The notes under the pieces are model-generated. The model did no database searches. It was not told where the DNA came from and was given only the letters and a program-made list of their open reading frames with translations. A DNA stretch of 64,000 nt from Minisyncoccia bacterium (lineage in GTDB: Bacteria > Patescibacteriota > Minisyncoccia > UBA6257 > GWB1-50-10): NCBI GenBank assembly GCA_049997815.1, contig JBEKVQ010000001.1, positions 20,642-84,641 on the forward strand, given 5' to 3'. The position numbers and the translations under genes are program-made. Below are positions 17,702 through 58,406 of the stretch, piece after piece (positions within the stretch are counted from its first letter, which is position 1; each line of letters opens with the position of its first letter).

Positions 17702-18394
17702 TCAGTTTTTGGTCTTAAGTTTCGAAAAATCGTGGAAAACGAAGAAGGCCGCGAATATAAGGAAAAGCGAGGGATAGAACAAACTCACATCCTCGAATCG
17801 GTAAATGAGATAGTTGAAGACGAAATGGATCGCAGTGGCGATGCCTATACCCAAGATAATTTTGGGGCCGACCTTACCGATTCTCCGGCCGATAGCCCAG
17901 TAGAAACCGGCGAAAGCCGAGGCCAAACCATGAAGCAGGGTTGCGCCGATAAAGCGGAAACCCAGCGCGCTCAAGGTCGTAATGAAATTGGTCAAACTCA
18001 GATAATCCAGCTTATCGCCCATTATGAATATATTCTCGATGGTCGCGAAGCCCAGGGCGGCGGCGATGGTATAGATCATCGCGTCCACCGGCTCGTCGAA
18101 GGCCGGTTCATTCCAGACGCTCCAGTAGGCCGCAAAGAACTTGAATATTTCCTCGATAACCGCGAGTCCCAGAACGAGAACGAGGAAGACATTAATCGGT
18201 CCGGCGATGAATTTCTGAAAAATAACCTGAAGAACCAGTACCGGAATGCTCGCGAGCGCACCGGCGCAGAACGTGAAGAGAATAAGCCTCTTCGGTTCGG
18301 GATGGCGGTCCTCCTTCAGAAAGAAGATCATCCACAATATCGCCGGCAATAGAGCGAGAATGACGACGAAGAGGAAATTTAATGTCGCTACCAT
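17702..18394 (-). CDS. PrsW-family intramembrane metalloprotease
   Basis: Polytopic membrane protein carrying EEIFKF, FATIENIF and LLHGLASAFAGFYW, matching the PrsW EExxK / FxxxE / H motifs. Confidence 0.55.
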   Translation of the reverse strand: MVATLNFLFVVILALLPAILWMIFFLKEDRHPEPKRLILFTFCAGALASIPVLVLQVIFQKFIAGPINVFLVLVLGLAVIEEIFKFFAAYWSVWNEPAFDEPVDAMIYTIAAALGFATIENIFIMGDKLDYLSLTNFITTLSALGFRFIGATLLHGLASAFAGFYWAIGRRIGKVGPKIILGIGIATAIHFVFNYLIYRFEDVSLFYPSLFLIFAAFFVFHDFSKLKTKN

Positions 18395-20505
18395 TTTTCA
18401 ACCATCAGGAGTTTTTTATCTCCGACCGGAAGATGTTCGTAGACAGCTTCGGTGATGAAGGGCATGAAGGGATGGAGCATTTTCAGGGACTCTCTGAGCG
18501 TGTAGGCGAGGATTTTCTGGGTATTGGCCTTCAATTTTTCGTCCGAACACTGTTTCTTGGATTCCTCGATATACCTATCGCAGAACTCGTGCCAGAAAAA
18601 TTCGTAGAGGTCGTGGAGAGCCGGACTAAACTCGAAGGCCGCGATGTATTTTTCGGTCTTGAACTTGGCATTTTTCAGTTCCCTCATAATTTTTTTGTCC
18701 GCGACGGTTTCCGCTCCCGGTACTTTATCCAGCTCGGTGTTTTTGAATTTAACGTCCCCCAACTGTGTTAGAACGAAACGGCTGGCGTTCCAGATCTTGT
18801 TCGCGAATTTCCGGCCGGCCATTACCGCCGCCTCGTCCCAATGAATGTCTTGTCCCGAGGCCTGCCAGATGACCGCGAACCGGGTCGCATCGGCTCCGTA
18901 ACGTTCCACATATTCCAATGGGTCAATGCCGGTACCCAAGCTTTTGGACATCCGCTTCCCCTCCTTGGCCAGTATTGTGCCGTTGATGAAGACGTCCGTG
19001 AAGGGAGCTTTCTTATGGAATTCCATACCGGAAAAAACCATCCGTGCAACCCAGAGATTCAGAATATCGCGGGCTGTGATAAGCGCACTGCCGGGGTAGT
19101 ATTTTTTAAGGTCCTCTTTGGAAAGCCCGGCGAAGGGCCATAGGGCGGATGAAAACCATGTGTCCAGAACGTCTTGGCTCCGCTCCATCCCGCATTTCTT
19201 GCAGAACGGGCAATCCCCCGGTTTCTCGAGAGACACGGCGAATTTTTCTTTGTCATTCTTGCAGAAATAGACCGGCAACTGGTGCCCCCACCAGATTTGG
19301 CGGGAGACGGACCAGTCGCGGACATTCTCGAGCCAGCTTAAATACGTCTTTTCGAAATTTTTTGGCTGAATTTTGACTTTCTTGGACTTCACGGCGGTTT
19401 TCGCGAGCACGCCCAGCTTATCCATTTTGAGGAACCACTGAATGGAGGGGATTGGTTCTATCGTCGCTCCGCAGCGATAGCATCTTGCGACCCGGTTTTG
19501 ATAAGGCTCTTCTTTTACCAAAAGCCTCATCTCTTTTAAGTCGCTTACTATTTTTTCTCTGGCTTCAACGGTTTTGAGTCCGGCGTACTTTCCCGCTACC
19601 GGCGTCATCTTGGCCCGTTCGTCTATCACCTGAATCATATCCAATTTATGCCGCTGGCCAATTTCGAAGTCCAGAATGTCGTGGGCGGGCGTCACCTTGA
19701 CCGCGCCCGTGCCGAACTTCGGGTCTATTACAGTGTCGCCAATTATCGGGATTTCCCGGTTTTGGATGGGAAGCATCACTTTTTTCCCGATGAGAGATTT
19801 GTATCTCTTGTCGGTGGGATTTACGGCGATTGCGGTGTCGCCCAGCATCGTTTCGGGGCGCGTGGTCGCGACCGTGACCTCGGGAGAGTATTTAATGTAC
19901 CAAAGTTTTGTCTCGCTACCCTCGTATTCCAATTCCAGCTCGGATAAACTCGTGCCGTCCTTAGGGCACCAGTTCACCGTGCGGAGCCCGCGGTAGAGCC
20001 ACCCCTTTTCGTAGTAATGGATGAAGGCCTTCAAAACGTCGCGGCTGTAATTCTCGTCCATCGTGAAGCGGACGCGGGACCAATCGGCCGAGACACCCAA
20101 TCTTCTCAATTGGGAAAGAATTATGTCGCCGTATTTTTTCTTCCACTCCCAGACCTTCTCTATGAACTTCTCGCGACCGAGATCCCATCTTGAAATATTT
20201 TCTTTCCGCAATTCTTTTTCCACCTTGTACTGCGTGGCGATGCCAGCATGGTCGGTTCCCGGGAGCCAGAGAGCTTTGAACCCCTTCATCCGGTGATATC
20301 TAATGAGAATATCCTGAATGGTATTATTCAGGGCGTGGCCCATATGAAGCGTGCCCGTCACATTCGGAAGAGGCATATAGACGATGTATTTTTTCTTACG
20401 ATTTTTTTGGTCAGGGAGACCATCGGGATTAAAATAGCCCGAATTGAGCCAGGTTTCGTATATCTTGTCTTCAACGAGCTTGGGGTCGTATTGGGGATTC
20501 AGCAT
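18388..20505 (-). CDS. valS: valine--tRNA ligase (short form, 705 aa)
   Basis: PNVTGTLHMGHA (HIGH region), KMSKSLGTGIDP (KMSKS), CP1 editing domain and anticodon-binding domain. Lacks the usual long C-terminal coiled coil. Confidence 0.9.
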   Translation of the reverse strand: MLNPQYDPKLVEDKIYETWLNSGYFNPDGLPDQKNRKKKYIVYMPLPNVTGTLHMGHALNNTIQDILIRYHRMKGFKALWLPGTDHAGIATQYKVEKELRKENISRWDLGREKFIEKVWEWKKKYGDIILSQLRRLGVSADWSRVRFTMDENYSRDVLKAFIHYYEKGWLYRGLRTVNWCPKDGTSLSELELEYEGSETKLWYIKYSPEVTVATTRPETMLGDTAIAVNPTDKRYKSLIGKKVMLPIQNREIPIIGDTVIDPKFGTGAVKVTPAHDILDFEIGQRHKLDMIQVIDERAKMTPVAGKYAGLKTVEAREKIVSDLKEMRLLVKEEPYQNRVARCYRCGATIEPIPSIQWFLKMDKLGVLAKTAVKSKKVKIQPKNFEKTYLSWLENVRDWSVSRQIWWGHQLPVYFCKNDKEKFAVSLEKPGDCPFCKKCGMERSQDVLDTWFSSALWPFAGLSKEDLKKYYPGSALITARDILNLWVARMVFSGMEFHKKAPFTDVFINGTILAKEGKRMSKSLGTGIDPLEYVERYGADATRFAVIWQASGQDIHWDEAAVMAGRKFANKIWNASRFVLTQLGDVKFKNTELDKVPGAETVADKKIMRELKNAKFKTEKYIAAFEFSPALHDLYEFFWHEFCDRYIEESKKQCSDEKLKANTQKILAYTLRESLKMLHPFMPFITEAVYEHLPVGDKKLLMVEKW

Positions 20506-29720: not shown

Positions 29721-31199
29721 ATGGCGATGAATAAGAAGTTCTATATTACGACAACCCTCCCGTACGTGAACGCGGAGCCGCATATTGGTTTCGCGCTCGA
29801 GATTGTCCAGGCGGACATAATCGCCCGCCATCACAAATCCCTCGGCGAGGAGGTGGTTTTCAATACCGGCACAGATGAACATGGCCTGAAGATCTATAGG
29901 AATGCTCAGGAGGAGGGGAAAGACGTTCAAAAGTACGCAGACGAGAATGCCGCGAAGTTCAATGAGTTGAAGAAAGCGCTGAACGTCGATTTTACGAATT
30001 TCATCCGCACTACCGACCCGCATCACATCTCGGCGGCTCAGGAGTTCTGGAAGCGGTGCGACAAGAATGGCGATATTTACAAAAAGAACTATCAGATCAA
30101 ATACTGCGTCGGCTGCGAACTTGAAAAGACCGAATCCGAACTCCAAGACGGCATTTGTCCCATTCACCCCAATCTGGAGTTGGAGCTCATCGATGAGGAA
30201 AATTATTTCTTCCGTTTTTCCAAATATCAAAAGCCGCTTCTGGAACTTTACGAAAAATATCCGGATTTCGTGGTACCGGCCCACCGGCTCACGGAAATAA
30301 GTAATTTCGTGGCGGCGGGACTCCAGGATTTCAGCATCTCGCGGCTCAAAAGCAAGATGCCTTGGGGCGTGCCGGTGCCGGGAGACGAAGCTCAAGTGAT
30401 GTACGTTTGGTTCGATGCGCTCGTGAATTACGTTTCCACTCTTGGCTGGCCCGAGAACACGAAGAATTTTGAAGATTTTTGGGGCACGAAAGATAGTCCC
30501 AATGCTCTTCAGATCGCCGGCAAGGATAATCTGCGCCAGCAATCGGCAATGTGGCAGGCAATGCTCTTATCGGCCGGACTCCCGACCTCGCGGCAGATAA
30601 TCATCCACGGTTTCATTACGAGCGGGGGAGAAAAGATGTCCAAGAGCTTGGGGAATGTGGTGAATCCTTACGAGATTGTTGAGAAATACGGAACGGATGC
30701 GCTCCGGTTTTGGCTCGCCAATGACCTCAATCCTTTCGAGGATGGCGATTTTACCTGGGATAAATTCAAGGAAAGCTATAACGCGAATCTGGCGAACGGT
30801 CTGGGAAACTTTGCGGCGCGGGTACTCACGCTGGGAAGTTCTCTCGGGCAATTCGAGGCGCCGGCGGTTTCAGGAACGATAACGGAGAAGATAGAAGCCG
30901 CGAAGAAGACCGTTCGGGAAAAGTTGAAAGAATTCAAATTCCACGAAGCGCTTGGTGCCGTTCGGGAACTTATCGGTTTCGGCGACGGATATGTGAATGA
31001 GAACAAGCCCTGGGCGGAAAAAGACGGTGAGAAAAAGAAAGAATTGGTTTTCAATCTGATAGTGATTCTGGATAACGTTGCGGCTCTGCTCGCGCCCTTT
31101 ATTCCGGGCACGGCCTCGAAGATCACCGGGAATATTGTTTGGTCCGGCTCTAAATTGGAAACGAAGAAAGGTGAAGCATTGTTTCCTAGGGTTTCTTAG
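29721..31199 (+). CDS. metG: methionine--tRNA ligase (core form, no C-terminal tRNA-binding extension)
   Basis: PYVNAEPHIGFA (HIGH), KMSKSLGN (KMSKS) and a zinc knuckle (CVGC...CPIH). Confidence 0.9.
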   Translation: MAMNKKFYITTTLPYVNAEPHIGFALEIVQADIIARHHKSLGEEVVFNTGTDEHGLKIYRNAQEEGKDVQKYADENAAKFNELKKALNVDFTNFIRTTDPHHISAAQEFWKRCDKNGDIYKKNYQIKYCVGCELEKTESELQDGICPIHPNLELELIDEENYFFRFSKYQKPLLELYEKYPDFVVPAHRLTEISNFVAAGLQDFSISRLKSKMPWGVPVPGDEAQVMYVWFDALVNYVSTLGWPENTKNFEDFWGTKDSPNALQIAGKDNLRQQSAMWQAMLLSAGLPTSRQIIIHGFITSGGEKMSKSLGNVVNPYEIVEKYGTDALRFWLANDLNPFEDGDFTWDKFKESYNANLANGLGNFAARVLTLGSSLGQFEAPAVSGTITEKIEAAKKTVREKLKEFKFHEALGAVRELIGFGDGYVNENKPWAEKDGEKKKELVFNLIVILDNVAALLAPFIPGTASKITGNIVWSGSKLETKKGEALFPRVS

Positions 31200-32238: not shown

Positions 32239-33402
32239 ATGAACCAGGTCCGTTTTTTTCTTCTGGCACTGGTGCTCGCGATCGTCGCGATTCCAGCGTC
32301 GGCTCAGATGATGCATCCCCTCTTGTCCACGGATAGCTCCTACTTGGAGCAGTTCCGGAACAAGACCCCCGATGAAGTTCAGGGGAAGGTTTGGGGGAGT
32401 ATATGCGCCATGAACCGGATGCAATATCCGGATTCGAATAAGGTGATGCCGGGCGATTTCATCGCTATGCCGTTGGGTGAGTACTATCAAGCCACGGCGG
32501 GCGGGACGAGTCACATGTGGGATGCCGCAAGGTGTTTCACGAATAAGATAGTATTACCTTATCTGAACGGCACTCTGGAGACGAGGGTCCAGCAACAATC
32601 AAAGTCGATTGTTGAGGATTCTACAAAAGCCAGTTCCAGGCCCTATCCCGAGTGGCTAGTATTCTTCCCGATAGTAATCATAGTATTGGCAGCGTTGTAC
32701 TTTCTCGCCAGATCAAAGAAGTGGAACAAGAAACCGGTTAACCCGCCGTTCATCTCATCGGAAAAAATACCTAATCCCAAAACAGCAACCCCCGAACAGG
32801 TTCGGCCGCTGGTACAGGAAGCATTGGGGGGAACGTTCGGCGAGAAGAATTTCAAGTTAATCGGCGATACTGAAGATGTCCTCATCGAGAAAGGTACCCT
32901 GGTGTCTTTCTTTAAGGATGGCTCCCATACCGTAAAGGAGTATAAGAATCAGGATGGGTACCGAGCTCTCGTTGAGTTCTTGAGGAGTGGGAAGAGGTCG
33001 CTGGTCGTCCTTGATGCGGCATGCTTCAATCCACTTTGGACAGCGGAGTATGCCGAATTTTCTGGCACCGTCATTCCGAAAGGGAAGACCCAGCCAGAAG
33101 TGATTGAGCGGATCACGATGGACCAGGTCGGTGACATCGGCGAAAACATCCGCCGCATCAACCGGGGCGAGGAAGTAGCCGTCGAGCCGGTTGTCGAGCA
33201 GCCGCCCGCAGCTCCAGCTCAGGAGTCACCCACTGCCCAGGAACCGCCAACTTCCGAAGAGAAGGAGCCGGAAGTTTCTGTGGAGGAAATACAAATCAGT
33301 GAGGGGAGACTCACATTAAAGGGGGGTCGGGTTAAGCTGAGTTTCGATCAGCTTAAGGAACTGATACACGAAGTTGTTCCGAAAGGTGGAGCATCATCGT
33401 AG
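32239..33402 (+). CDS. hypothetical secreted/membrane protein
   Basis: AGGAGG SD, a signal peptide (LLALVLAIVAIPASA), an internal TM helix and a P/E-rich C-terminal region. Confidence 0.4.
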   Translation: MNQVRFFLLALVLAIVAIPASAQMMHPLLSTDSSYLEQFRNKTPDEVQGKVWGSICAMNRMQYPDSNKVMPGDFIAMPLGEYYQATAGGTSHMWDAARCFTNKIVLPYLNGTLETRVQQQSKSIVEDSTKASSRPYPEWLVFFPIVIIVLAALYFLARSKKWNKKPVNPPFISSEKIPNPKTATPEQVRPLVQEALGGTFGEKNFKLIGDTEDVLIEKGTLVSFFKDGSHTVKEYKNQDGYRALVEFLRSGKRSLVVLDAACFNPLWTAEYAEFSGTVIPKGKTQPEVIERITMDQVGDIGENIRRINRGEEVAVEPVVEQPPAAPAQESPTAQEPPTSEEKEPEVSVEEIQISEGRLTLKGGRVKLSFDQLKELIHEVVPKGGASS

Positions 33403-33524: not shown

Positions 33525-36500
33525 ATGAAGGAATACGATTTCCAAAAGATCGAGAAAAAATGGCAGAAAAGGTGGCTTGAAGACGGCACCTACGAACCGG
33601 ATTTGGTGAAGGCCAAAAATCCCTTCTATAACCTGATGATGTTCCCGTACCCGTCGGCCGAAGGGCTGCACGTCGGGAATATGTATGCTTTCACGGGCGC
33701 GGACATCTACGGCCGGATGAAGCGGATGCGGGGCTACGACGTTTTCGAGCCTATCGGGCTGGACGGCTTCGGGATTCATTCGGAAAACTATGCCCTGAAA
33801 ATCGGCGCGCACCCAATGGACCAGGCAAAAATATCGGAAAAACGTTTTTACGAACAGCTCCGGATGATCGGGAATGGCTTTGCCTGGAACGAAAAGGTGG
33901 AGACCTATAACCCGGATTATTACAAATGGACCCAATGGGTTTTCACGGAGATGTGGAGGCGCGGCCTGGCCTATCGCAAAAAACAATCGGTGAACTGGTG
34001 CCCGAAAGACAAAACGGTCTTGGCTGATGAGCAGGTAATCGCCGGAAAATGCGAAAGGTGCTCCGCGGTCGTCGTCAAAAAAGATATGGAGCAGTGGTTT
34101 TTCAGGATTACTAAATATGCCGAAAAACTCTTAAAGAACCTGGATAAGATAGATTGGTCGGAAAGAGTGAAAATAGCCCAGCGGAATTGGATTGGGAAAT
34201 CCGAGGGCGCGCTGCTGGATTTCGAAATCAAGGGCGGTGTCGCGCCGTCCTATGTTTTGCTCCACGGATATACCGGCTCGCCCAAGAAACATTTTTTCCC
34301 CTGGCTCAAGAAGGAATTGGAAAAGCGCGGAGCGAAAGTTTACGCGCCGGAACTGCCGGATGCCGAAGATCCTAAGGTTTATGACCAAGCGGCCGAAGTC
34401 CTGAAATCCGTGCCGTTCGGCGAGGACACGGTGCTCGTGGGGCATAGTTTGGGCGGAGTGGTGGCACTTAAGGTTCTCGAGAAACTGAATAAGCCGGTAA
34501 GAAAGACCGTGCTCGTCACAAGTTACAACGAAAACAAGTTTTTTAACGACCCCTTTGAACCTCATACCTTTGACTGGAAATTCGACGTAAAGAAAATAAA
34601 AGCCAATGCCGGGAACATCCATATTTTGAGGGATATGACCGATGACGTTGTCCCTTCGTACCAGGCAGACAATCTAAAGGACGTTTTTGGGGGAGAAATA
34701 TTCGATTTCAGCGCAGCGACGCCCCATGCTTGGGGAAAGAAGGAGAAAGAGGAACCCGAGATTTTGGGTCATTGTATTGATTCTCTCCGGGTTTTCACGA
34801 CCCGCCCCGACACGCTCTTCGGCGCGACCTATATGGTCGTGGCACCGGAACACGGAATGGTAGGGGAACTCAAAGAGAAAATAACGAACTACAAGGAGGT
34901 TGAGGCCTATGTGAAGAAAACGAGCAACAAGTCGGAGGAAGAAAGAATAGAAGAAGGGAAGGAAAAGACCGGGGTGGAACTCAAGGGGATTAAGGCGGTG
35001 AATCCCGTAAATAATGAAGAAATCCCGGTTTTCATCGCCGATTACGTGCTCGCCTCATACGGGACGGGCGCCATTATGGCGGTGCCGGCGCATGACGAAC
35101 GGGATTATGAGTTTGCAAAGAAATATAAATTGCCGATCCGGGAAGTGGTTATCAGGAAATTTGGTGAAACAAAGAGTGGAGCGCAAGAAAGAAAAACAGT
35201 GTATGCCGTTGTTAAACACAAAGATAAGATTCTCCTGGTATTCAATAAAAAACTCAACGAGCATCAGTTACCAGGAGGGAAAATTGAAGATGGCGAGAAT
35301 GACTCTGATACGCTGCGTAGGGAAATCGCGGAAGAAACTGGGTACGATCACGTGACGCCGCAGACATATCTCGGCCAGATTGATTTCAATTATTTCTTCC
35401 GTCACTACAAGTTCGATAGCCATTTGCGGGCGAAAGGATATCTTGTAGAACTGAATGACGAGCATAAAATTCCGGTTCGTAATTCCACCGGGGAAAACAT
35501 GCAGTCATCCGAATGGATGGAGGCAGACAGAGCGATCGAATGTATGAAGAACGGAACATGGAGTGGGATTGAGGGATTTATCAAGCGTGCAACAGGACAA
35601 GAATCACTCTGCTTCTCCGGCGATGGTGTATTAGTGGACTCTGATAATTTTGACGGAACGGATTCCGAAAAAGCCAAGTGGGAAATCACAAAGCTCGTGG
35701 GCGGAGAAAGAAAAATCCAATACCGCTTACGCGACTGGCTTATCTCGCGCCAGCGCTACTGGGGTGCGCCGATACCAATGATCCACTGCGAGGCCTGCGC
35801 CTCGAAGGGCGATGGCGAACAGAAAGAAATGCTTGGCTGGTATGCCGTACCAGAAAAAAATCTGCCGGTGGAACTTCCTTACGTCAAAGATTTCCGTCCG
35901 CAGGGCAAGGGCGAATCTCCGCTCGCTTCGGTCAAAGAATTTTATGAAGCGAAGTGCCCCCACTGCGGCGGGAAGGCGCGCCGGGAGACCGACGTCTCGG
36001 ACACTTTCCTGGACTCGGCCTGGTATTATCTCCGCTACCCGAGTGCAAAAGAAAAAAATAAGGCCTGGGATTTGGAAATGACGAAAAAATGGTTCCCGGT
36101 GAATCTCTATACCGGCGGAGCGGAACACTCCGTTCTCCATCTTCTCTACGTTCGCTTCGTGGCCATGGCTTTTCATGATGCCGGCTGGCTTGATTTCGAA
36201 GAGCCGTTCCCGAAGTTCCGCGCGCACGGGCTGCTCATAAAAGAGGGAGCGAAGATGTCCAAGTCCAAGGGGAATGTGATAAATCCGGACGAGTACATAA
36301 AAAAATTCGGCGCCGATTCCCTCCGAATGTATCTGATGTTCCTCGCGCCCTTCGAGCAGGGCGGCGATTTCCGGGACGAAGCGGTTCTGGGTATTGTGCG
36401 TTTTTTGGACCGAGTTTGGAATTTGTACATGAAAGAACCCGGCGTTTCCGGCTGGGCGGACGAAAATGTTCTTCGTCTCACACATCGCACGATAAAAAAG

Positions 36501-36920
36501 ATAACGGACGATATCGAATCTCTTCATTACAATACCGCCATTAGCGCTTTAATGATTCTCCTGAACGAACTTGAGAAGGCAAATCCCGACAGAGAGAATA
36601 AAGAAGTGTTTTTGAAACTTCTCGCTCCCTTTGCCCCCCATATAACCGAGGAGCTTTGGCATGAATTGGGCAATCCGGCGTCGATTCATAGAGAATCCTG
36701 GCCAGTCGCCAATCCAAAATTATTGAAAGAGGAGGATTTCGACATGGTGGTTCAGGTGAACGGAAAACTGCGAGCAACCGTCAAAATGCCGAGGGGCATT
36801 GCCCAGAAAGATGCCGAGAAAGCAGCATTGAGCAATGAAAATGTGAGGAATTCCCTTGCCGGGCAGAAACCGAAGAAAATCATTTTCGTCCCCGACCGCT
36901 TAATTAATTTCGTGGTTTGA
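33525..36920 (+). CDS. leuS: leucine--tRNA ligase with two inserted hydrolase domains (alpha/beta serine hydrolase; Nudix)
   Basis: Canonical LeuRS blocks: PYPSAEGLHVGN (HIGH), NWIGKSEG, TTRPDTLFGATY (CP1), RLRDWLISRQRYWG and KMSKSKGN. Insert 1 (aa ~236-415) carries LLHGYTGS and GHSLGG. Insert 2 (aa ~555-690) carries a perfect Nudix box GGKIEDGENDSDTLRREIAEETGY. Confidence 0.9.
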   Translation: MKEYDFQKIEKKWQKRWLEDGTYEPDLVKAKNPFYNLMMFPYPSAEGLHVGNMYAFTGADIYGRMKRMRGYDVFEPIGLDGFGIHSENYALKIGAHPMDQAKISEKRFYEQLRMIGNGFAWNEKVETYNPDYYKWTQWVFTEMWRRGLAYRKKQSVNWCPKDKTVLADEQVIAGKCERCSAVVVKKDMEQWFFRITKYAEKLLKNLDKIDWSERVKIAQRNWIGKSEGALLDFEIKGGVAPSYVLLHGYTGSPKKHFFPWLKKELEKRGAKVYAPELPDAEDPKVYDQAAEVLKSVPFGEDTVLVGHSLGGVVALKVLEKLNKPVRKTVLVTSYNENKFFNDPFEPHTFDWKFDVKKIKANAGNIHILRDMTDDVVPSYQADNLKDVFGGEIFDFSAATPHAWGKKEKEEPEILGHCIDSLRVFTTRPDTLFGATYMVVAPEHGMVGELKEKITNYKEVEAYVKKTSNKSEEERIEEGKEKTGVELKGIKAVNPVNNEEIPVFIADYVLASYGTGAIMAVPAHDERDYEFAKKYKLPIREVVIRKFGETKSGAQERKTVYAVVKHKDKILLVFNKKLNEHQLPGGKIEDGENDSDTLRREIAEETGYDHVTPQTYLGQIDFNYFFRHYKFDSHLRAKGYLVELNDEHKIPVRNSTGENMQSSEWMEADRAIECMKNGTWSGIEGFIKRATGQESLCFSGDGVLVDSDNFDGTDSEKAKWEITKLVGGERKIQYRLRDWLISRQRYWGAPIPMIHCEACASKGDGEQKEMLGWYAVPEKNLPVELPYVKDFRPQGKGESPLASVKEFYEAKCPHCGGKARRETDVSDTFLDSAWYYLRYPSAKEKNKAWDLEMTKKWFPVNLYTGGAEHSVLHLLYVRFVAMAFHDAGWLDFEEPFPKFRAHGLLIKEGAKMSKSKGNVINPDEYIKKFGADSLRMYLMFLAPFEQGGDFRDEAVLGIVRFLDRVWNLYMKEPGVSGWADENVLRLTHRTIKKITDDIESLHYNTAISALMILLNELEKANPDRENKEVFLKLLAPFAPHITEELWHELGNPASIHRESWPVANPKLLKEEDFDMVVQVNGKLRATVKMPRGIAQKDAEKAALSNENVRNSLAGQKPKKIIFVPDRLINFVV

Positions 36921-50378: not shown

Positions 50379-52121
50379 ATGAAAACCTATGAACACTTGA
50401 CTTTATATTTGCAGTCTGATAGACTTGAATTACAAGCTATGAGAAAGGATATACAAGCAAAACTTAATGGAATGCCGGAATTGCTCTCTATCAGCCAGGT
50501 AGCTGAGATTTTCAATATTCACCCCGACACCCTCCGAAACTGGGAGAAGGAAGGCATTTTAGTGCCTCTACGGGCCGGTAAGCGCGGAGACCGCAAATAC
50601 CGCCCCCAGGACATTCAAACCATTGTGGACAAAATGGGCAGTAAGCTCACCCTGCCACAACTTGAGCAGTTCCTTTGGAAAAGCGCCGATATTCTCCGCG
50701 GCAAGATCGACAGCTCCGATTACAAGAAATATATATTCGGACTCCTCTTTTACAAACGAATCAGTGACGTTTGGGACGAGGAATATAAGCGAGTGATGGA
50801 AGAATATAAAGATGAGACGGTCGCGCGAGCTGATTACAACCACCGTTTTCAAGTACCTCAGGATTGCCGGTGGTCAGTTATTGAGGAGCAGGCGGAAAAT
50901 ATCGGCCCCAAGCTTAATGGAATCTTTGATAAGCTCACGAACGCCAACAGCCCGAAGCTGGACAAAATTTTTGACGACCTCGATTTTGCACACAAAGATA
51001 AATTTCCGAATGAAACCACTCAGCGTTTAATAAATCACTTTTCGCAATACAACTTTAGCGATACGTATATCAACTCCGATCTTCTTGGGGACGCATACGA
51101 GTATCTCATTAAGCAGTTTGCGGCTGATGCCGGGAAGAAGGGTGGGGAATTTTATACCCCGCGAGAAGTTGAGCGCGTTATCATCCAAATTCTGAAGCCA
51201 CACAAGAAAGATCACATATATGATCCTACCGTTGGATCAGGCGGTTTTCTTCTTGAAGCGTATCACCACCTAAAGGAAACAGATGGCGAAAAAATTGCAC
51301 GGACACTTTATCTCTATGGGCAAGAAATAAACATCGGAACATTTGCGATCGCGAAGATTAATATGTTTCTCCACGGACTTGACGCTGCAGATGTCCAGCG
51401 CGGTGACACACTCGCGAATCCTCAATTCTTGAACCCGAACGGAACGCTAAAAACATTCGACATCTGCGTAGCAAATCCTCCCTACTCAATTAACGACTGG
51501 GAAAGCGAGCTGTTTAAAGAAAGATATGGCCGAATTGAAGGTTACGAAATACCGCCGAAGAGTAATGCGGACTATGCTTTCGTACTCCATATCATAAAGT
51601 CAATGAATTCAAATGGCCGCGCAGGTATCGTATTGCCTCACGGTGTTTTATTTCGCGGTGGTGCTGAAGGACGTATCCGTGAACAGATTCTCAAGAACGA
51701 CCTTATTGAGGCGGTGATTGCGCTCCCACCTAAGCTTTTTTATGGTACCGGCATACCGGCGGCGATTCTCATTTTCAACAGAAATAAGTCGGAGGACCAT
51801 AAAAATAAAGTCTTCATCATTGATGCCGAGAAGGACTTTTCCGAAGGCAAAAACCAGAACTCACTACGCGTGCAGGATATCCAAAAGATTGTGAGGGCAT
51901 ATGAAAACTACACAGACATTGAGGGCTATGCTCGAGTCGTTGGCCTTAAAGAGATTGAGGAGAACGAGTACAGCCTCGGTGCGCGCAGATATATTGAAAA
52001 CGACGACAAGGAAGAGACTATAGATGTTTCTGCCGTTCGAAAGGAACTCCTCGCGATTCAAAAGGAACGCGCGGATATAGATAAAAAGGTTGAGGGATTT
52101 CTCTCGGATCTTAAATATTGA
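50379..52121 (+). CDS. hsdM: Type I restriction-modification methyltransferase subunit HsdM with an N-terminal MerR/Xis-type HTH extension
   Basis: HsdM N-domain, FYTPREV, and VANPPYSI (motif IV NPPY). The first ~85 aa form a HTH_17-like domain (LLSISQVAEIFNIHPDTLRNWEKEGIL). Confidence 0.9.
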   Translation: MKTYEHLTLYLQSDRLELQAMRKDIQAKLNGMPELLSISQVAEIFNIHPDTLRNWEKEGILVPLRAGKRGDRKYRPQDIQTIVDKMGSKLTLPQLEQFLWKSADILRGKIDSSDYKKYIFGLLFYKRISDVWDEEYKRVMEEYKDETVARADYNHRFQVPQDCRWSVIEEQAENIGPKLNGIFDKLTNANSPKLDKIFDDLDFAHKDKFPNETTQRLINHFSQYNFSDTYINSDLLGDAYEYLIKQFAADAGKKGGEFYTPREVERVIIQILKPHKKDHIYDPTVGSGGFLLEAYHHLKETDGEKIARTLYLYGQEINIGTFAIAKINMFLHGLDAADVQRGDTLANPQFLNPNGTLKTFDICVANPPYSINDWESELFKERYGRIEGYEIPPKSNADYAFVLHIIKSMNSNGRAGIVLPHGVLFRGGAEGRIREQILKNDLIEAVIALPPKLFYGTGIPAAILIFNRNKSEDHKNKVFIIDAEKDFSEGKNQNSLRVQDIQKIVRAYENYTDIEGYARVVGLKEIEENEYSLGARRYIENDDKEETIDVSAVRKELLAIQKERADIDKKVEGFLSDLKY

Positions 52122-52122
52122 T

Positions 52123-53412
52123 ATGAAAACGGCACAGACGACAATTCCGAATGGGTGGCAACAAGCAAAGCTTGGTGACATTGCTAAGTTACGTAAGGGA
52201 TTAACTTACAAAAGTTCACACTATTCAAATAAGCAGGATGGTTTAATTTTTCTTACTCTCAAGTCCATCCTAAGAGGGGGTGGTTTTAATACCGATGGGA
52301 TAAAGTTCTATTCTGGAGATTATGATCCTTCTGCTGTTGTAAATGAAGATGATTTGGTGATCGCAAATACTGATATAACACGGGATGCTGAAGTTGTTGG
52401 AGCACCGATGCTGCTCCCGGGTTTTCCAAAGAAACCCGTCTTAATCTCAATGGATCTTTCTGTTTTAGATATCAACGAAAGAGGTGCAAATAAACACTTT
52501 ATATATTATCTTTTACAAGCTCCAATGGCCCGTAATTTTATGAGAGACCACTCAAATGGCTCTACCGTCCTCCATCTCAAGACCAAAGACGTTCCTAGAT
52601 TCAGTTTTTTAATGCCAACTATTACGGAACAGAAAAAGATTGCGGAGATTTTGGGGACAGTAGATGCAGAAATTAAAAAAACCGACGAGATTATTATTGC
52701 TACAGAGAAGCTCAAAAATGGGCTAGTACGACAGTTGTTTACCCGAGGTATTGGACACACAAAATTTAAGAAAACTAAATTCGGTGATATTCCGGCAGAA
52801 TGGACTACAGAAAGTTTCAAAGATTCGTCAATTGAAATTATTGATGGCGACCGCGGAGTTAATTATCCAAAGCAAACCGACTTCTCTGATGACGGCTACT
52901 GCTTGTTTTTGAATAATAAAAATATAAAGAACGATGCTTTTCTTTTTGAAGATTGCAGCTTTATCACAAAAGAAAAAGATGGGACCTTGCGCAAGGGAAA
53001 GCTGAAGCGCTTTGATGTTGTGCTTACCACAAGAGGAACTGTAGGAAATATTGCGTTTTATGACAGTACCGTCCCATTTGAAAACATTCGAATAAACTCC
53101 GGAATGTTGATCCTCCGCGTTTCGAGAGGTTATGAGCCAGAGTTCCTGTACCGACTAATGAGAAATGAGTATATGAAAAGGAAATATACCGAAACGGCTT
53201 CAGGGTCTGCTCAACCGCAGCTACCCATTCGTAGTCTGGAAAATATTCTTATAGTTAAGCCAGATATTTCCGAACAAAAAGAAATAGTCGCAATCGCAAA
53301 ATCGGTTGACGAAAAAATTTCTGTGAACAAAAAATTGAGAGAGAAGCTCATTCTTCTCAAAAAGGGACTTATGCAAGATCTTTTGAGCGGCAAGGTAAGA
53401 GTAGTTACATAA
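52123..53412 (+). CDS. hsdS: Type I RM specificity subunit HsdS
   Basis: Two target-recognition domains separated by the conserved central region (LVRQLFTRGIGHTKFKKTKFGDIP) and the C-terminal conserved helix (LKKGLMQDLLSGKVRV). Start taken 1 nt after the hsdM stop. Confidence 0.8.
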   Translation: MKTAQTTIPNGWQQAKLGDIAKLRKGLTYKSSHYSNKQDGLIFLTLKSILRGGGFNTDGIKFYSGDYDPSAVVNEDDLVIANTDITRDAEVVGAPMLLPGFPKKPVLISMDLSVLDINERGANKHFIYYLLQAPMARNFMRDHSNGSTVLHLKTKDVPRFSFLMPTITEQKKIAEILGTVDAEIKKTDEIIIATEKLKNGLVRQLFTRGIGHTKFKKTKFGDIPAEWTTESFKDSSIEIIDGDRGVNYPKQTDFSDDGYCLFLNNKNIKNDAFLFEDCSFITKEKDGTLRKGKLKRFDVVLTTRGTVGNIAFYDSTVPFENIRINSGMLILRVSRGYEPEFLYRLMRNEYMKRKYTETASGSAQPQLPIRSLENILIVKPDISEQKEIVAIAKSVDEKISVNKKLREKLILLKKGLMQDLLSGKVRVVT

Positions 53413-53418
53413 ATTATT

Positions 53419-54507
53419 ATGCGATTCATAGACATATTTAAAACTGATGCAGCATCTATTCTCCAGAATCGAAAGAATGGGGTTATTTATACTGCGGACT
53501 TTGGAAGTGGCGAAGGGAAATATATTAGTTCCGCATTTGATAGTACTGATCCCGTTGATTTGAGTATTCAGATTTCTCCAAAAGTCGAAGTGAGAATCGC
53601 ATATATTTTTAACGGTGAACAAATCAGTGGGTTACAGATATCGAAAGTTAATAATAAGGGTGAGCTGGAAAAGATTCATCTTTCGACCTTGGATTGGGAG
53701 GGAGTGCTTGGTTTACTCCAGATATTCTCGGAGATGGATATTAAGGCATTAGCGCGCAAAAATTTGATTTTGAATGAAAAAATTACAGAGAATCCTCAGG
53801 AGTTGGAAGCATTCTTAAAAACTATTAGCACTGATCCGGAGGGAAAAGAGAAAATGACGGAAATCGTGAAAAACTTTGGTCTTATTAAGCGTGGCGATAT
53901 TGATGAAATCGCTGAACGTAGAGAGTCATCAGCTCTATTTGATAGATTACTCAATAATTCCACCGAGTTTGCTGCAAAGAAAACAGAATGGGGTGTCGGT
54001 AAAAATGAAGAGGTTTGGCAAAGATTTTTTAAAGAAAATGTATGGATTCTTGGTGCAGAGTTTATTGAGATTCTTAATGAACGGGTGCTCGATACAGAAA
54101 ACATAACAGACTATATTGTGAAATCGTATGACGGTTTTGCGGATATTATTGAATTAAAACTTCCGAGTGTACAATTTTGGAACGCAGATCTAACACCAAA
54201 TAGTGACTTAGCAAAAGCACTCATGCAGTGTATGCGTTATATTTCGGCAATTGAAAGAAGGATCAACGACCTTGAGCTTAATAAAAAACTTGGTCGAACA
54301 GCTATTGTGAAACCTAGAATCACATTGATTTTTGGCCGGTCGAATAATTGGACAGATGAACAGAGGGAAACATACAGAATTTTAAATGCCAATTTTCATT
54401 CCATAAGTATTTTGACTTACGATCATGTTTTTGAGAGGGCAAAAAGGATGACTGCTAATAATATGCGTGACGTTGATGATATAAAACCGGAAGTTATCAC
54501 ATTTTAA
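53419..54507 (+). CDS. uncharacterised protein with a PD-(D/E)xK nuclease-like motif (possibly DUF4263/Shedu-like), embedded in the Type I RM operon
   Basis: ITDYIVKSYDGFADIIELKLP gives a D...ExK arrangement, followed by QCMRY. Sits between hsdS and hsdR with 6-bp and 3-bp gaps. Confidence 0.45.
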   Translation: MRFIDIFKTDAASILQNRKNGVIYTADFGSGEGKYISSAFDSTDPVDLSIQISPKVEVRIAYIFNGEQISGLQISKVNNKGELEKIHLSTLDWEGVLGLLQIFSEMDIKALARKNLILNEKITENPQELEAFLKTISTDPEGKEKMTEIVKNFGLIKRGDIDEIAERRESSALFDRLLNNSTEFAAKKTEWGVGKNEEVWQRFFKENVWILGAEFIEILNERVLDTENITDYIVKSYDGFADIIELKLPSVQFWNADLTPNSDLAKALMQCMRYISAIERRINDLELNKKLGRTAIVKPRITLIFGRSNNWTDEQRETYRILNANFHSISILTYDHVFERAKRMTANNMRDVDDIKPEVITF

Positions 54508-54510
54508 TTT

Positions 54511-57423
54511 ATGAAATTCAACGAACAACATACAATTGAAAATCACATCATCAAGTTTCTCAAGGAGGAACTTGGTTATGAATATATAAAACCGCAAGAG
54601 TTTGCGAAGCTGCGCGAATTTGAGAACGAATACATTATCGCCCCGCTCCTTACTGTGGCAATAAAGAAAATCAACGAGATTACTGATGAGACAGAAGCTC
54701 AAGTAGTAGTGCGTGAGGTTAAAAAGCTTGATTCAAACGAGGCATTCTTAAATGTTCTCCGAAACGGCCTCAACTTAAAAGATCCCGAAACCGGTAAGAT
54801 GCGTGATTATTTTATCGTTGATTTTGATAGGCCGGAAAACAATCATTTTGTTGTCACAAATCAATTTTATTTTGAAGGTAACTCCGAAAATATTCGCCCA
54901 GACGTGATGGTATTTCTAAACGGTCTGCCGGTGGTTGATATTGAGGCTAAGAGCCCAACTGCCTCAAGCAGTATTGATTACTCCAATGCCGTAGGTCAGA
55001 TAAAACGATACGAACGCAATGCCTTTAAACTTTTCTGGCCTAACTGTTTCAATATCGCCTCCGACGGCCTGAAGACCGTGTATGGCGCCACCTATGCTTC
55101 GGCAGAGTATTTCCTACAATGGCGCGAGGAGGAACTGGCGAAGAAATATGGTGAGGAGCTCGAAGTGACGCTTGCCGCACTTATCTCACGCGATCGCCTG
55201 CTTGATATCATCGGAAACTTTATTCTCTTTGAGAAAGAGCAAGAAGGAACCATAAAAAAGATCACCCGCTACATGCAGTATCGGGCCACCAATAAGATCG
55301 TTGAGCGTGTTCAAAGTGGAAAAACAAAGCGCGGCCTCGTTTGGCATACACAAGGGTCTGGAAAATCCTTCACTATGTTTTTTACCGCATGGAAGTTGCG
55401 TTTCGACAAGAAACTAAAAAACCCAAAGGTCTTCGTTTTGGTTGACCGGATTGATCTTGATGATCAGCTCTACAACACGTTTCTTAATTGTGGCGGGCAA
55501 AATGTGATCCGGGTAGAATCCCGTCGCGATCTTGAACGAAAAATCCAATCTCCAGAACGTGGCATTTTTATCTCTACAATTCAGAAATTCTCCGAGCTGG
55601 GCGATGAGGTAAAAAATCTCGACGAGAACATTATTGTTCTTTCTGACGAAGCGCACCGGGATAACGAGGGCATCTCCGCAATCAATTTGCGAAGCGCTAT
55701 GACGAACGCTTTTTTCTTCGGTTTTACTGGCACCCCGATTGATCGACTAACTCTCAATACCCACAGAAATTTCGGCGAGGAGGGAGAACGCTATCTTGAT
55801 TACTACTCTATTCAGCAAGCCGTTGATGATGGAGCGACGCTGCCGGTTACCTATGAAGCGCGGCTTTCTAAATTCTTCATTAACGAAGAGGAGCTTGATA
55901 AGCAATTCGACGAGCTCACAGTGGATCTGAACGAAAAAGAGAAGGACCAGATTTCAAAGAAATATGGTAAAAAGGAAGCAATCGTAAAGCTCGATAGGCG
56001 TATGGAGGCAATCGCCCGGGATATCGTTGAGCACTTCAAACTCTATGTTGAGCCAGCTGGGTTCAAGGCACAGATTGTTTGTTATGACCGCGAGACTACG
56101 GCCAAGTATAAAAAACTACTTGATCAACTTGTACCAAAAAACTGGTCTGAAGTTGTTTACTCTCCCGGAGATGCCAATACCGATTCAGAAGAGTTGCGGA
56201 CATATAACACGACGAAGGCAAAACGGGAGAAGATCATCAACGAGTTCAAAGATCCGAACAGTTCTCTGAAGTTCTTGCTCGTTTGCGATATGCTCTTGAC
56301 CGGCTTTGACGCGCCTGTTGAGCAAGTTATGTATCTTGATAAGCCACTATGGGATCACAATCTCCTGCAAGCAATCGCGCGGACGAACCGTATTTATCCA
56401 AATAAGGGGGCCGGAAAGGTTATTGATTACTATGGCATCACACGAAGTCTCTACAAATCGTTGAACTTCGACGAGAGTATTGTTGATTCCGCGATGATTA
56501 ATATTGACAAGCTCAAAGAGGAATTCGAGGAGGTTTTGGACGAATTGAAAAATCTCTTTGTCGGTATTAACACCGAAGACCCTTCTATCGAAAATCTCCG
56601 CCGGTGCTTAAAGATTTTTGCGGACAATATAGAAAAACAGAAGTTCTATCAGGAGAAGTACGCTCGTCTGAAGCTTCTTTTTGAAGTTCTGTCCCCGGAC
56701 CCATTTCTAAAAAAACATATTCGTATCTTCGAATGGTTTACAAGCGTATTCATCGCTTTTGAAAAAGAGTATGGTATGAAAGTATCCGATACGGAGCTTC
56801 TTGCAAAATACGGCGAGAAAGTGAAACAGCTCATCCAACAGCGAGTTGACTATGAGGGCATCACCAAGAATTTCCGCGAGCTTAATGTAAATGATCTTTA
56901 TGTAATGGAGCGGCTTAATAAGATGGATGACGAAGAAAAAGCGCTCAATCTTGAAAAGATGCTTAAGCAGGAAATTTCTATCAATGTTGATACGAATCCG
57001 GCATACAAGAAATTCAGCGAGCGGCTCTTGGCAATACGAAAAGAATTTGAGCAGCACCAAATTGATCTTGCGGAGCGAATTAAACGCTACCAAGAGCTTT
57101 TGTCGGATATAAAGAAAAAAGGAGACGAGGCAAAAGAGCTTGGCTTCACACTCAAGGAGTATGGTTTATTCGTTATCTCGGAAGAATTCATCGTTGATAG
57201 TGACAAAGCCACGGTGCATGAATTTATTAAGGAAATGACGAACCGGCTGGAAGAGGTGCTTGATGAAGGGTGGCAAGAATCCTCTAAGCGGGAAGAGTTT
57301 TTGAAGGAGGCCAAGAGGATCATTCAGGAGCTTGTGCTCAAGGAGTACAAGGGAAAGATAAGGGTCAACGACTTCCATAAGTATTTGAATCGGCTCATCG
57401 ACATCGTAATTAAGAAATTCTGA
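54511..57423 (+). CDS. hsdR: Type I RM restriction subunit HsdR (helicase/endonuclease)
   Basis: N-terminal nuclease region (VDIEAK), helicase motif I HTQGSGKS, DEAH box VLSDEAHRD, motif VI. 970 aa. Confidence 0.9.
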   Translation: MKFNEQHTIENHIIKFLKEELGYEYIKPQEFAKLREFENEYIIAPLLTVAIKKINEITDETEAQVVVREVKKLDSNEAFLNVLRNGLNLKDPETGKMRDYFIVDFDRPENNHFVVTNQFYFEGNSENIRPDVMVFLNGLPVVDIEAKSPTASSSIDYSNAVGQIKRYERNAFKLFWPNCFNIASDGLKTVYGATYASAEYFLQWREEELAKKYGEELEVTLAALISRDRLLDIIGNFILFEKEQEGTIKKITRYMQYRATNKIVERVQSGKTKRGLVWHTQGSGKSFTMFFTAWKLRFDKKLKNPKVFVLVDRIDLDDQLYNTFLNCGGQNVIRVESRRDLERKIQSPERGIFISTIQKFSELGDEVKNLDENIIVLSDEAHRDNEGISAINLRSAMTNAFFFGFTGTPIDRLTLNTHRNFGEEGERYLDYYSIQQAVDDGATLPVTYEARLSKFFINEEELDKQFDELTVDLNEKEKDQISKKYGKKEAIVKLDRRMEAIARDIVEHFKLYVEPAGFKAQIVCYDRETTAKYKKLLDQLVPKNWSEVVYSPGDANTDSEELRTYNTTKAKREKIINEFKDPNSSLKFLLVCDMLLTGFDAPVEQVMYLDKPLWDHNLLQAIARTNRIYPNKGAGKVIDYYGITRSLYKSLNFDESIVDSAMINIDKLKEEFEEVLDELKNLFVGINTEDPSIENLRRCLKIFADNIEKQKFYQEKYARLKLLFEVLSPDPFLKKHIRIFEWFTSVFIAFEKEYGMKVSDTELLAKYGEKVKQLIQQRVDYEGITKNFRELNVNDLYVMERLNKMDDEEKALNLEKMLKQEISINVDTNPAYKKFSERLLAIRKEFEQHQIDLAERIKRYQELLSDIKKKGDEAKELGFTLKEYGLFVISEEFIVDSDKATVHEFIKEMTNRLEEVLDEGWQESSKREEFLKEAKRIIQELVLKEYKGKIRVNDFHKYLNRLIDIVIKKF

Positions 57424-58087: not shown

Positions 58088-58106
58088 TGCGGAGGGTAGA
58101 GGATTC
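58088..58106. repeat. 19-bp direct repeat tgcggagggtagaggattc (tRNA-proximal att-like copy)
   Basis: Forms the 3' end (T-loop to discriminator) of tRNA-Ser(CGA). Identical to 39777-39795. Confidence 0.6.
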
Positions 58107-58176
58107 GAACCTCTGAGGGGATTTCTCCCCAACCGCATTTCGAGTGCGGCGCGTTAGACCACTCTGCCAACCCTCC
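58090..58176 (-). tRNA. tRNA-Ser (anticodon CGA)
   Basis: Reverse complement GGAGGGTTGGCAGAGTGGTCTAACGCGCCGCA-CTCGAAA-TGCGG...GGTTCGAATCCTCTACCCTCCG. Long variable arm. Anticodon loop CTCGAAA. Confidence 0.85.
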
Positions 58177-58184
58177 TTCGCACG

Positions 58185-58256
58185 TGCCCCCGAGAGGAAT
58201 CGAACTTCTATCTTATCCTTAGGACGGATCCGCTCTATCCATTGAGCTACGGGGGC
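58185..58256 (-). tRNA. tRNA-Arg (anticodon CCT)
   Basis: Reverse complement GCCCCCG TA GCTC AATGGATA GAGC G GATCC GTCCTAA GGATA ... GTTCGATTC ... CGGGGGC A. Anticodon stem is 4 bp plus a 27:43 G-A mismatch. Confidence 0.7.
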
Positions 58257-58398: not shown

Positions 58399-58406
58399 CA
58401 GGCAGG

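Follow-up and report, generated by a model that had tools for sequence, protein, structure and literature searches.

The stretch of DNA analyzed here, 64,000 nucleotides of contig JBEKVQ010000001.1 from a Minisyncoccia bacterium (hereafter the window), carries on its + strand a leuS gene (33525..36920) that encodes a leucyl-tRNA synthetase (LeuRS) of 1131 amino acids. We show that this gene is the genome's syntenic, orthologous bacterial-type LeuRS, and that it bears two autonomous hydrolase modules, a serine hydrolase and a Nudix domain, in surface loops of its CP1 editing domain. We further show that LeuRS in Patescibacteria and DPANN-labeled genomes carries swappable cargo (one to three Nudix domains, one or two serine hydrolases, Ham1, HAD and DUF559) at two sites that flank CP1 and at a third site, and that this cargo is specific to LeuRS as its host. 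The host is an ordinary bacterial LeuRS, and neither insert is out of the ordinary for its family (PF06821 and PF00293, respectively); the unusual part is the architecture together with its combinatorial, patchy spread. An earlier note on this DNA had described a single synthetase with two inserted hydrolase domains, and the pattern is wider than that, being a widespread combinatorial phenomenon rather than the peculiarity of one gene.

The length of 1131 residues given in the earlier note corresponds to one continuous open reading frame (ORF). LeuRS sequence flanks each insert and no intein domain is present, and the two hydrolases are thus in-frame domain insertions, as had been proposed, rather than separate genes or inteins. 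The note had also named an assembly chimera as what would overturn its reading. The same protein, with two substitutions (E336K and H580Y), was found on a 167-kb contig of an independent assembly in the ENA, and the architecture recurs in many other assemblies. There was no compositional break, the junctions of the inserts are clean at the protein and DNA levels when compared with insert-less orthologs, and no paralog of either insert was found elsewhere in the 64-kb window.

The whole 1131-residue protein scores 865.8 bits against TIGR00396 (leuS_bact), for which the curated equivalog cut-off is 548.4. The full-length AlphaFold2 model has a mean pLDDT of 89.7 and a pTM of 0.76, and a Foldseek search with this model retrieved solved LeuRS structures at a TM score of ~0.8 over the target length, with no LeuRS among these structural matches having such inserts. 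Alignment to a reference LeuRS, that of Thermus thermophilus (1H3N), fixed the insertion points and resolved the protein into four blocks, in which query residues 1-237, 421-548, 697-905 and 906-1131 pair with T. thermophilus residues 1-238, 243-367, 377-578 and 633-876, respectively. The first block is the N-terminal catalytic part, including the ZN-1 region (33525..34235), and the second is the core of the CP1 editing domain (34785..35168; 187 bits against PF13603). The last two blocks, which together span 35613..36917, hold the rest of CP1, the second catalytic half, and the anticodon-binding and C-terminal domains, with a match to PF08264 (Anticodon_1) at residues 979-1091.

The core motifs of the synthetase are intact. 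The HIGH motif takes the form HVGN (residues 49-52, nucleotides 33669-33680), with Asn rather than His in the fourth position, and both H49 and G51 are invariant across 83 homologs. KMSKS is found at residues 910-914 (36252-36266), where K910, M911, K913 and S914 are invariant. In the editing domain, TTRPDT (residues 425-430) and GTGAIMAVPAHDERD (residues 513-527) are invariant or nearly so, and T425, T426, R427, T430, G513, G515 and D527 are invariant in homologs with and without inserts. As the synthetase's own motifs (HVGN, KMSKS, TTRPDT and GTG...HDERD) are kept regardless of whether inserts are present, the modules supplement CP1 and are not substitutes for it.

The query thus resembles the LeuRS of T. 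thermophilus (1H3N, 2BYT) and Escherichia coli (4AQ7, 4ARC) in family, fold, HIGH-type motif, KMSKS, the T-rich/GTG/Asp editing set, and the anticodon-binding and C-terminal domains. Apart from the HVGN form of HIGH, it departs from canonical bacterial LeuRS in the 183 plus ~148 extra residues that make up the two hydrolase domains within CP1. Moreover, the T. thermophilus and E. coli enzymes have a leucine-specific domain that is absent from the query, in which nothing pairs with T. thermophilus residues 579-632 in the 1H3N alignment (junction at residues 905/906, window 36237-36242). The leucine-specific domain is not universal in LeuRS, and membership in TIGR00396 therefore holds despite its absence.

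The first insert (residues 238-420; 34236..34784, + strand) is a YdeN/RBBP9-type alpha/beta serine hydrolase. Its 183 residues agree with the ~180-residue insertion ahead of CP1 that had been read from the motifs LLHGYTGS and GHSLGG, located here at residues 245-252 and 306-311. The insert takes the place of T. thermophilus residues 239-242, the four-residue turn of a beta-hairpin where CP1 begins, and ends about five residues before the T-rich editing motif TTRPDT. PF06821 (Ser_hydrolase) matches residues 243-395 over model positions 1-148 of 172, with 38.7 bits against a gathering threshold of 22. The closest solved relatives are Bacillus subtilis YdeN (1UXO; E=2.3e-10) and human RBBP9 (E=2e-5), with which the insert shares a compact alpha/beta fold of ~185 residues, the GxSxG motif, and the Asp and His; it differs from them in being embedded in a loop of another enzyme and in having subfamily motifs of its own, FDWKFDF and H-x-C-G-K-x-E-P. 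The insert is compact and well ordered in the full-length AlphaFold2 model (pLDDT ~90). Conservation was counted over 78 hydrolase-bearing LeuRS homologs, all of which retain Ser308, the nucleophile in GHSLGG (codon 34446..34448), and His401, a likely triad partner (34725-34727). Asp370, the other likely triad partner (34632-34634), is conserved in 74/78, and the residues of the oxyanion pair His247-Gly248 (34263-34268) in 75/78 and 70/78, respectively. Among the best 120 LeuRS homologs the insert is 178-194 residues long where it occurs, and its junction residues are conserved.

The second insert (residues ~549-696, ~148 residues; 35169..35612, + strand) is a Nudix hydrolase domain that occupies a loop in the C-terminal part of CP1, in place of T. 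thermophilus residues 368-376 (a loop of ~9 residues). The complete Nudix box reported in the earlier note is present at residues 585-607 (35277..35345) and matches GX5EX7REUXEEXGU at every specified position (G585-x5-E591-x7-R599-E600-I-A-E603-E604-T-G606-Y607). The size given for this insertion, ~190 residues, was too large: ~187 residues do span the interval from PIREVV to KIQYRL, but ordinary LeuRS has ~45-60 residues in the same interval, so that the true insertion is ~140-148 residues. PF00293 (NUDIX) matches residues 557-670 with 52.0 bits against a gathering threshold of 21.1, and the profile searches for both an alpha/beta hydrolase and a Nudix domain thus gave matches above cut-off. 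Within the box, 54 Nudix-bearing homologs conserve G585 (53/54), E591 (49/54), R599 (51/54), and E600, E603, E604 and G606 (53/54 each); outside it, identity among the Nudix inserts falls as low as 25-30%.

Modeled on its own with AlphaFold2, the Nudix insert forms an alpha/beta/alpha sandwich with a pLDDT of 89.9, and both inserts are therefore confidently predicted to adopt ordinary enzyme folds, structure prediction having been among the checks proposed in the earlier note. Foldseek returned 571 matches in the PDB at E<=1e-3, and the best 50 listed were all Nudix proteins. The nearest folds were those of Enterococcus faecalis 2AZW, the Aquifex Ap4A hydrolase 3I7U (TM 0.74-0.81), Mycobacterium smegmatis MutT1, and Rv2985, a diadenosine polyphosphatase; the fit to ADP-ribose pyrophosphatases was poorer. 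With these minimal MutT/Ap4A-type enzymes the insert shares the full Nudix box and the sandwich fold (TM 0.70-0.81), and it differs from them in being lodged within CP1; its identity with any Nudix of solved structure is only ~20%. The nearest match in sequence is an uncharacterized E. faecalis MutT/nudix protein. The insert scores far below the cut-offs of the NCBIfam MutT, RppH and YtkD models, and the fold is closest to the Ap4A/MutT1 type at only ~20% identity; since the score on every NCBIfam model of a Nudix subfamily falls well short of the cut-off, the specificity of the domain cannot be assigned from sequence or fold. The query Nudix falls in a rare subfamily of four sequences with 37-45% identity, and an exhaustive HMMER search of 1.84 billion representative proteins found no close relative (best E=1.6e-20; 11 matches at E<=1e-10). 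A word-index homology search with the insert alone returned nothing, that method being uninformative here and superseded by the HMMER search. Judging from the near-invariant motifs and the confidently modeled folds, both inserts look catalytically competent.

A survey of other LeuRS, also suggested in the earlier note, found that the inserts recur in many metagenome-assembled genomes (MAGs) labeled as Patescibacteria or DPANN (homologous proteins and loci are cited below by P and L numbers). Among the best 120 LeuRS homologs, which where named belong to Patescibacteria, Lipton-, Sung- or Jorgensenbacteria, or Paceibacterota, 41 have the hydrolase only, 37 have both inserts, 17 have the Nudix only, and 25 have neither. 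Within the query's own clade (~85% core identity), neither insert is found in P0006, P0008, P0015 or P0021, the hydrolase alone is found in P0002 and P0004, and the Nudix is found only in the query. The window and the contigs of P0008 and P0015 have a common gene order of HisRS-like, M16 peptidase, AI-2E transporter, MetRS, TatD, LeuRS, a 305-residue hypothetical protein, and HtrA. The histories of insert and core are discordant in some homologs; identity is 85% for the hydrolase insert versus 59% for the core in P0029, and 80% versus 57% in P0061.

The cargo is also arranged in other ways. P0121, P0129 and P0133 have three Nudix domains, two ahead of CP1 and one behind it, and P0123 and P0135 have a Nudix followed by a hydrolase, both after CP1. 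P0045 has a hydrolase at both sites, the one at site 2 being a second YdeN-like hydrolase. At site 1, a Ham1/ITPase domain occurs in P0137, a DUF559 endonuclease-like domain in P0126, and a Nudix-Nudix-hydrolase array in P0148 and L027. The third site lies between the catalytic core and the anticodon-binding domain, where P0184 has a block of Nudix-HAD-Nudix-Nudix. In the longest proteins among the first 120 homologs, the extra length comes from numerous small expansions rather than from additional cargo domains, the exceptions being the second hydrolase of P0045 and a 162-residue insert in the C-terminal region of P0110.

A scan of species-representative genomes with a tight profile of the hydrolase subfamily identified 68 loci. 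In 60 of these the hydrolase is embedded, in every case in a bacterial-type LeuRS: 36 have the embedded hydrolase only, 17 have it together with a site-2 Nudix, 3 with an additional Nudix at site 1, and 4 are truncated; the remaining 8 are free-standing. At one locus from a Patescibacteria MAG (L048:7197-10918), the leuS bearing hydrolase and Nudix is broken into two ORFs that overlap (7197-8981 and 8630-10918), which reflects either a frameshift error or a real split. Seventeen of the 60 embedded loci come from MAGs labeled Woese-, Pace- or Nanoarchaeota or 'archaeon' (L011, L019, L021-L026, L028-L030, L036, L043, L050, L053, L057 and L058); the labels are those deposited with the MAGs, and some are clearly unreliable. 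In these DPANN-labeled proteins, all of which bear the hydrolase insert, the bacterial-type LeuRS has a C-terminal region that scores higher on the archaeal LeuRS model. They are reminiscent of a LeuRS reported in Halobacteria that is bacterial but has tRNA-binding domains of archaeal origin (Fang et al. 2014, as cited in PMC9437257). If the MAG labels are right, the bacterial-type LeuRS in DPANN-labeled genomes suggests inter-domain transfer.

The specificity of the cargo for LeuRS was apparent from the proteins that host it. Twenty large proteins among the Nudix matches were scanned, and all 18 that had any synthetase domain had LeuRS features (16 by a PF13603 editing-domain match and P0184 by TIGR00396, with P0130 being a fragment); no IleRS, ValRS or MetRS was found as a cargo host among the 20. 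The ValRS encoded in the window (18388-20505, - strand; 953 bits) has its own CP1 and no insert in it.

Relatives of the hydrolase also occur as separate proteins. A profile of the hydrolase insert retrieved 2023 proteins, and the best 120 are all free-standing PF06821 proteins of ~185 residues from Patescibacteria, DPANN archaea and Bacilli. The closest of them, P0271 (E=1e-60, 45% identity), has the private motifs of the insert and termini that match the insert boundaries; used as a single query, it found no relatives in metagenomes. The P0271 gene belongs to a cluster on a Pacearchaeota contig (L006:6001-10882) in which the hydrolase, a second hydrolase, a YbaK-like tRNA_edit protein, a Ham1-like protein and an archaeal-type LeuRS (TIGR00395, 784 bits vs 648) are encoded on one strand by abutting or overlapping genes. 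Types of cargo that are fused to LeuRS in bacteria are thus separate genes beside the LeuRS of another lineage, and loop permissiveness therefore cannot explain the cluster. In L075, which has the nearest relative of the L006 LeuRS (74% identity), the hydrolase gene adjoins that of LeuRS on the downstream side, and in L126 the YbaK-like gene adjoins it; the neighborhood link among hydrolase, YbaK and LeuRS holds for a narrow clade only. On two unrelated Patescibacteria contigs (L003:6001-8757 and L004:5570-6591), free-standing YdeN-like hydrolase genes adjoin genes for small GIY-YIG nucleases of 80-92 residues, and in L003 a free Nudix gene of 157 codons lies 1.7 kb downstream of the hydrolase gene on the same strand, with other small housekeeping genes nearby.

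An obvious question is what function the two modules serve within LeuRS. The possibility that we tentatively put first, while giving it slightly less than an even chance, is that they are tethered accessory clearance enzymes beside the editing site. Both modules would be held next to the place visited by the tRNA 3' end. There the serine hydrolase may cut esters or anhydrides of alpha-aminoacyl groups, for instance aminoacyl-tRNA(Leu) ends that are mischarged or unwanted, or aminoacyl-adenylates that have been released, and so broaden the clearance range of CP1. The Nudix domain may hydrolyze adenine (di)nucleoside polyphosphates, or related NDP-X compounds that arise as by-products when adenylates are formed and used. 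The two modules would be optional plug-ins that are dispensable for leucylation. The earlier note had proposed extra editing or clearance chemistry on mischarged tRNA, aminoacyl-adenylates or ApnA, and by analogy with the known relatives of the modules this is plausible. The L006 cluster, in which the closest free-standing hydrolase accompanies YbaK-like, Ham1-like and LeuRS genes, lends it indirect support, as does the resemblance of the Nudix fold to Ap4A/MutT-type enzymes. A tie to LeuRS is also favored by the prevalence of LeuRS among cargo hosts, the insert-free ValRS of the window, and the narrow length range of the first insert.

The analogy is closest for the serine hydrolase. RBBP9 acts on single hydrophobic amino acids that are linked through their carboxyl group and have a free alpha-amine; it traps acyl-enzymes of Leu, Ile, Phe, Tyr and Trp, requires the free alpha-amine, and may cut amide, ester or thioester bonds (PMC8866121). 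It was also identified as a valacyclovir-activating enzyme (Shenoy et al. 2020, pmid 32196348, as cited in PMC7730578). Valacyclovir, an alpha-amino-acid ester of a nucleoside analogue, can be regarded as the chemically closest small-molecule mimic of the 3' end of aminoacyl-tRNA. Given the chemistry of RBBP9 and a site about five residues from the T-rich motif, the most economical reading of the first insert is that of an auxiliary aminoacyl-ester or aminoacyl-adenylate hydrolase. In its proposed hydrolysis of wrong aminoacyl esters, the insert would be like the cis editing domains and the free-standing trans-editing deacylases (YbaK/ProXp, AlaX and DTD), and a YbaK-like gene shares the L006 cluster with the hydrolase and LeuRS; it differs from both in having no kinship with them in sequence or fold. 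We know of no alpha/beta serine hydrolase shown so far to be a tRNA deacylase.

Several observations weigh against tethered clearance by the modules. The inserts are plainly dispensable between closely related enzymes: the core tree of the 120 LeuRS sequences requires at least 14 state changes for the hydrolase and at least 25 for the Nudix, and positional orthologs with 84-85% core identity have neither insert. No active-site position of LeuRS co-varies with either insert, and the only core positions that do are junction residues, the other flagged positions following phylogeny. The residues that anchor the alpha-amine in RBBP9, Glu108 and Ser76, have no conserved counterpart in the insert-1 family; the aligned positions are Leu309 (Leu in 73/78) and a variable loop (Arg343 in 51/78, Pro in the query) where the alignment is uncertain. 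This absence appears to bear on the substrate analogy and not on membership in PF06821. Most free-standing relatives of the hydrolase are not near leuS, and the L006 operon is not conserved, adjacency being found only in L075 and L126 among 80 loci around relatives of its LeuRS. The remaining kinds of cargo carried at these sites (Ham1 ITPase, HAD and the endonuclease-like DUF559) have no obvious tie to aminoacylation. The Nudix half of the explanation is the weaker one: the fold points to (di)nucleoside polyphosphates or substrates of the NTP type, ApnA for example, and nothing binds the Nudix domain to LeuRS chemistry specifically. Synthetases make ApnA from aminoacyl-adenylates; to our knowledge, however, LeuRS is not among the strongest producers of Ap4A, which is why the Nudix link is the weaker.

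An alternative that stands nearly level with tethered clearance, and which we consider a serious possibility without expecting it to prove right, is that the modules are small housekeeping hydrolases (MutT-like Nudix, ITPase, HAD and YdeN-like esterase) of streamlined Patescibacteria and DPANN genomes that hitch-hike in permissive hinge loops of CP1. LeuRS would serve as an essential, constitutively expressed carrier, and the modules would act on free metabolites with no coupling to leucylation or tRNA. The cargo set does resemble a kit for sanitation of the nucleotide pool (Nudix, Ham1 and HAD), and both the free gain and loss of inserts among close orthologs and the lack of co-adaptation in the LeuRS core are as expected for passengers. 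Many free-standing copies are found in these lineages too, as a rule not close to leuS, and the L003 copy lies near housekeeping genes that include the free Nudix. In addition, intragenic recombination could move cargo between sites, and the various arrangements need not represent independent acquisitions. Against hitch-hiking stands the strong preference for one host, as essentially all multidomain hosts found in the Nudix and hydrolase searches are LeuRS and the CP1 domain of the window's ValRS is clean. Terminal fusions would be mechanistically far easier than repeated insertions within loops, and the length and junctions of the hydrolase insert are tightly conserved. Loop permissiveness likewise offers no account of the cluster in which hydrolase, YbaK-like, Ham1 and archaeal-type LeuRS are separate genes.

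An unlikely alternative to tethered clearance is that the modules serve in conflict or repair. They might free the 3' end of tRNA from chemical blocks (3'-pyrophosphorylation by toxSAS toxins or N-acylated aminoacyl groups, for example), or they might destroy adenylate-mimic antibiotics aimed at LeuRS, in which case the hydrolase would cut the aminoacyl-nucleotide bond and the Nudix or HAD would degrade the nucleotide part. Patchy spread, fast turnover and high divergence are typical of conflict systems, and the query Nudix is no more than 45% identical to any other; cargo is also stacked, as in the Nudix-HAD-Nudix-Nudix block of P0184. Enzymes of the toxSAS type do pyrophosphorylate the CCA ends of tRNA (bioRxiv 10.1101/2021.04.30.441581; PMC11559606). 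LeuRS is a target of an adenylate-mimic toxin, and the structure of the toxic moiety of agrocin 84 on E. coli LeuRS (PDB 3ZGZ) is among the structural matches of the query. However, neither the window nor the related loci have toxin, antitoxin or defense genes around leuS. Searches of PHROGs and PADLOC found generic Nudix or esterase similarity only; in PADLOC the sole match was a generic one of the Nudix to the candidate PDC-S07 (45.6 bits), with none for the hydrolase and no partner genes nearby. We know of no Nudix enzyme that acts on 3'-pyrophosphorylated tRNA, and Ham1 and DUF559 fit a role in conflict or repair poorly.

A more far-reaching form of this idea, which we hold to be slightly less probable still, is that CP1 of Patescibacteria and DPANN LeuRS is a docking platform for a swappable toolkit that repairs or polices the tRNA acceptor end in cis. 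The Nudix, with HAD, would clear 3'-pyrophosphate or phosphate blocks of the kind that toxSAS toxins make, the serine hydrolase would strip blocked or wrong aminoacyl groups, and the rapid turnover and the stacking would arise from an arms race over translation between episymbionts, hosts and phages.

It is very improbable that the modules are catalytically dead scaffolds kept only as structural or tRNA-binding additions. Many appended domains of synthetases are non-catalytic, and the added surface might compensate for the missing leucine-specific domain, but orthologs without inserts likewise have no leucine-specific domain. Moreover, Ser308, both of its triad partners, the oxyanion pair and the metal-binding Nudix box are near-invariant across divergent homologs while the remainder of the Nudix drifts to 25-30% identity.

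We attach equally little weight to the idea that the inserts are selfish elements of an intein-like or homing kind, which propagate on their own and are no more than tolerated. It would accommodate the disagreement between insert and core phylogenies in P0029 and P0061, the DUF559 domain at site 1 of P0126, and the small GIY-YIG genes that flank the free-standing hydrolase genes in L003 and L004. The GC content at third codon positions (GC3) of the Nudix insert is 0.47, the lowest in the gene, versus 0.60-0.68 for the core; this difference is not significant as a sign of recent acquisition, as segments of equal size from the genes of the window reach a GC3 this low in 12.5% of cases. Against selfish spread, Pfam detected no Hint/intein or homing-endonuclease domain in the LeuRS protein, both inserts fold as ordinary enzymes, and catalytic residues are under purifying selection. 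The junctions are clean relative to insert-less orthologs, and neither the comparison of these junctions at the DNA level nor a repeat search found target-site duplications or flanking repeats at either insert. Finally, an assembly chimera or frameshift artifact that fused separate genes is suggested by nothing except the unusual length and has a negligible chance of being correct, given the continuous frame with LeuRS on both sides of each insert, the lack of a compositional break, the same protein in an independent assembly, and the same junctions in dozens of independent MAGs. Even taken jointly, dead scaffolds, selfish elements and artifacts are improbable.

We found no prior description of LeuRS with these inserts in the open-access literature; an earlier description elsewhere is possible. 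Databases already hold such proteins, one of which has the JGI annotation 'leucyl-tRNA synthetase/predicted alpha/beta hydrolase family esterase'. That a synthetase can have an appended or embedded domain is itself already known. An example is NCBIfam NF040702 ('isoleucine--tRNA ligase, N-acetyltransferase domain-containing'), which is likewise a class Ia synthetase with an extra small-molecule enzyme domain and which differs from the query in its host, domain types and positions; the query, at 59 bits against a cut-off of 1999, is not a member.

Proofreading by synthetases is generally attributed to a limited repertoire of ancient editing folds (CP1, INS/YbaK, AlaX, DTD and a handful of others). 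Across two radiations of ultra-small symbionts, the editing domain of LeuRS has repeatedly acquired a serine alpha/beta hydrolase and a Nudix enzyme, in many combinations. If the modules do act on aminoacyl-tRNA or adenylate chemistry, they would bring new chemistry to translational quality control and provide a physiological substrate for the uncharacterized bacterial YdeN family. If instead they are housekeeping enzymes only, they would offer a large natural example of how in-loop domain insertion builds multi-enzyme proteins in streamlined genomes, as well as a map of tolerated insertion sites in an enzyme that is an antibiotic target.

Other features of the window deserve mention. Unlike the expanded LeuRS, the ValRS (18388-20505, - strand; 704 residues) and the MetRS (29721-31199, + strand; 492 residues) are short and have no appended C-terminal domains. 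Between TatD and leuS is an ORF of 387 codons (32239-33402, + strand) whose product has no Pfam match, a predicted signal- or transmembrane-like N-terminus, and a tail rich in Pro and Glu. The ORF is also present in the independent assembly and is missing from the syntenic loci of P0008 and P0015, one of which has an Rce1-like gene at this position while the other is empty. Farther downstream, a type I restriction-modification locus (50379-57423) encodes HsdM (50379-52121) and HsdR (54511-57423). The two ORFs between them (52090-53412 and 53419-54507) have a very low GC3 of 0.33-0.37, the mean for the window being ~0.59. The locus adjoins a cluster of five tRNA genes (58089-58577) and has the appearance of an island gained by horizontal transfer.

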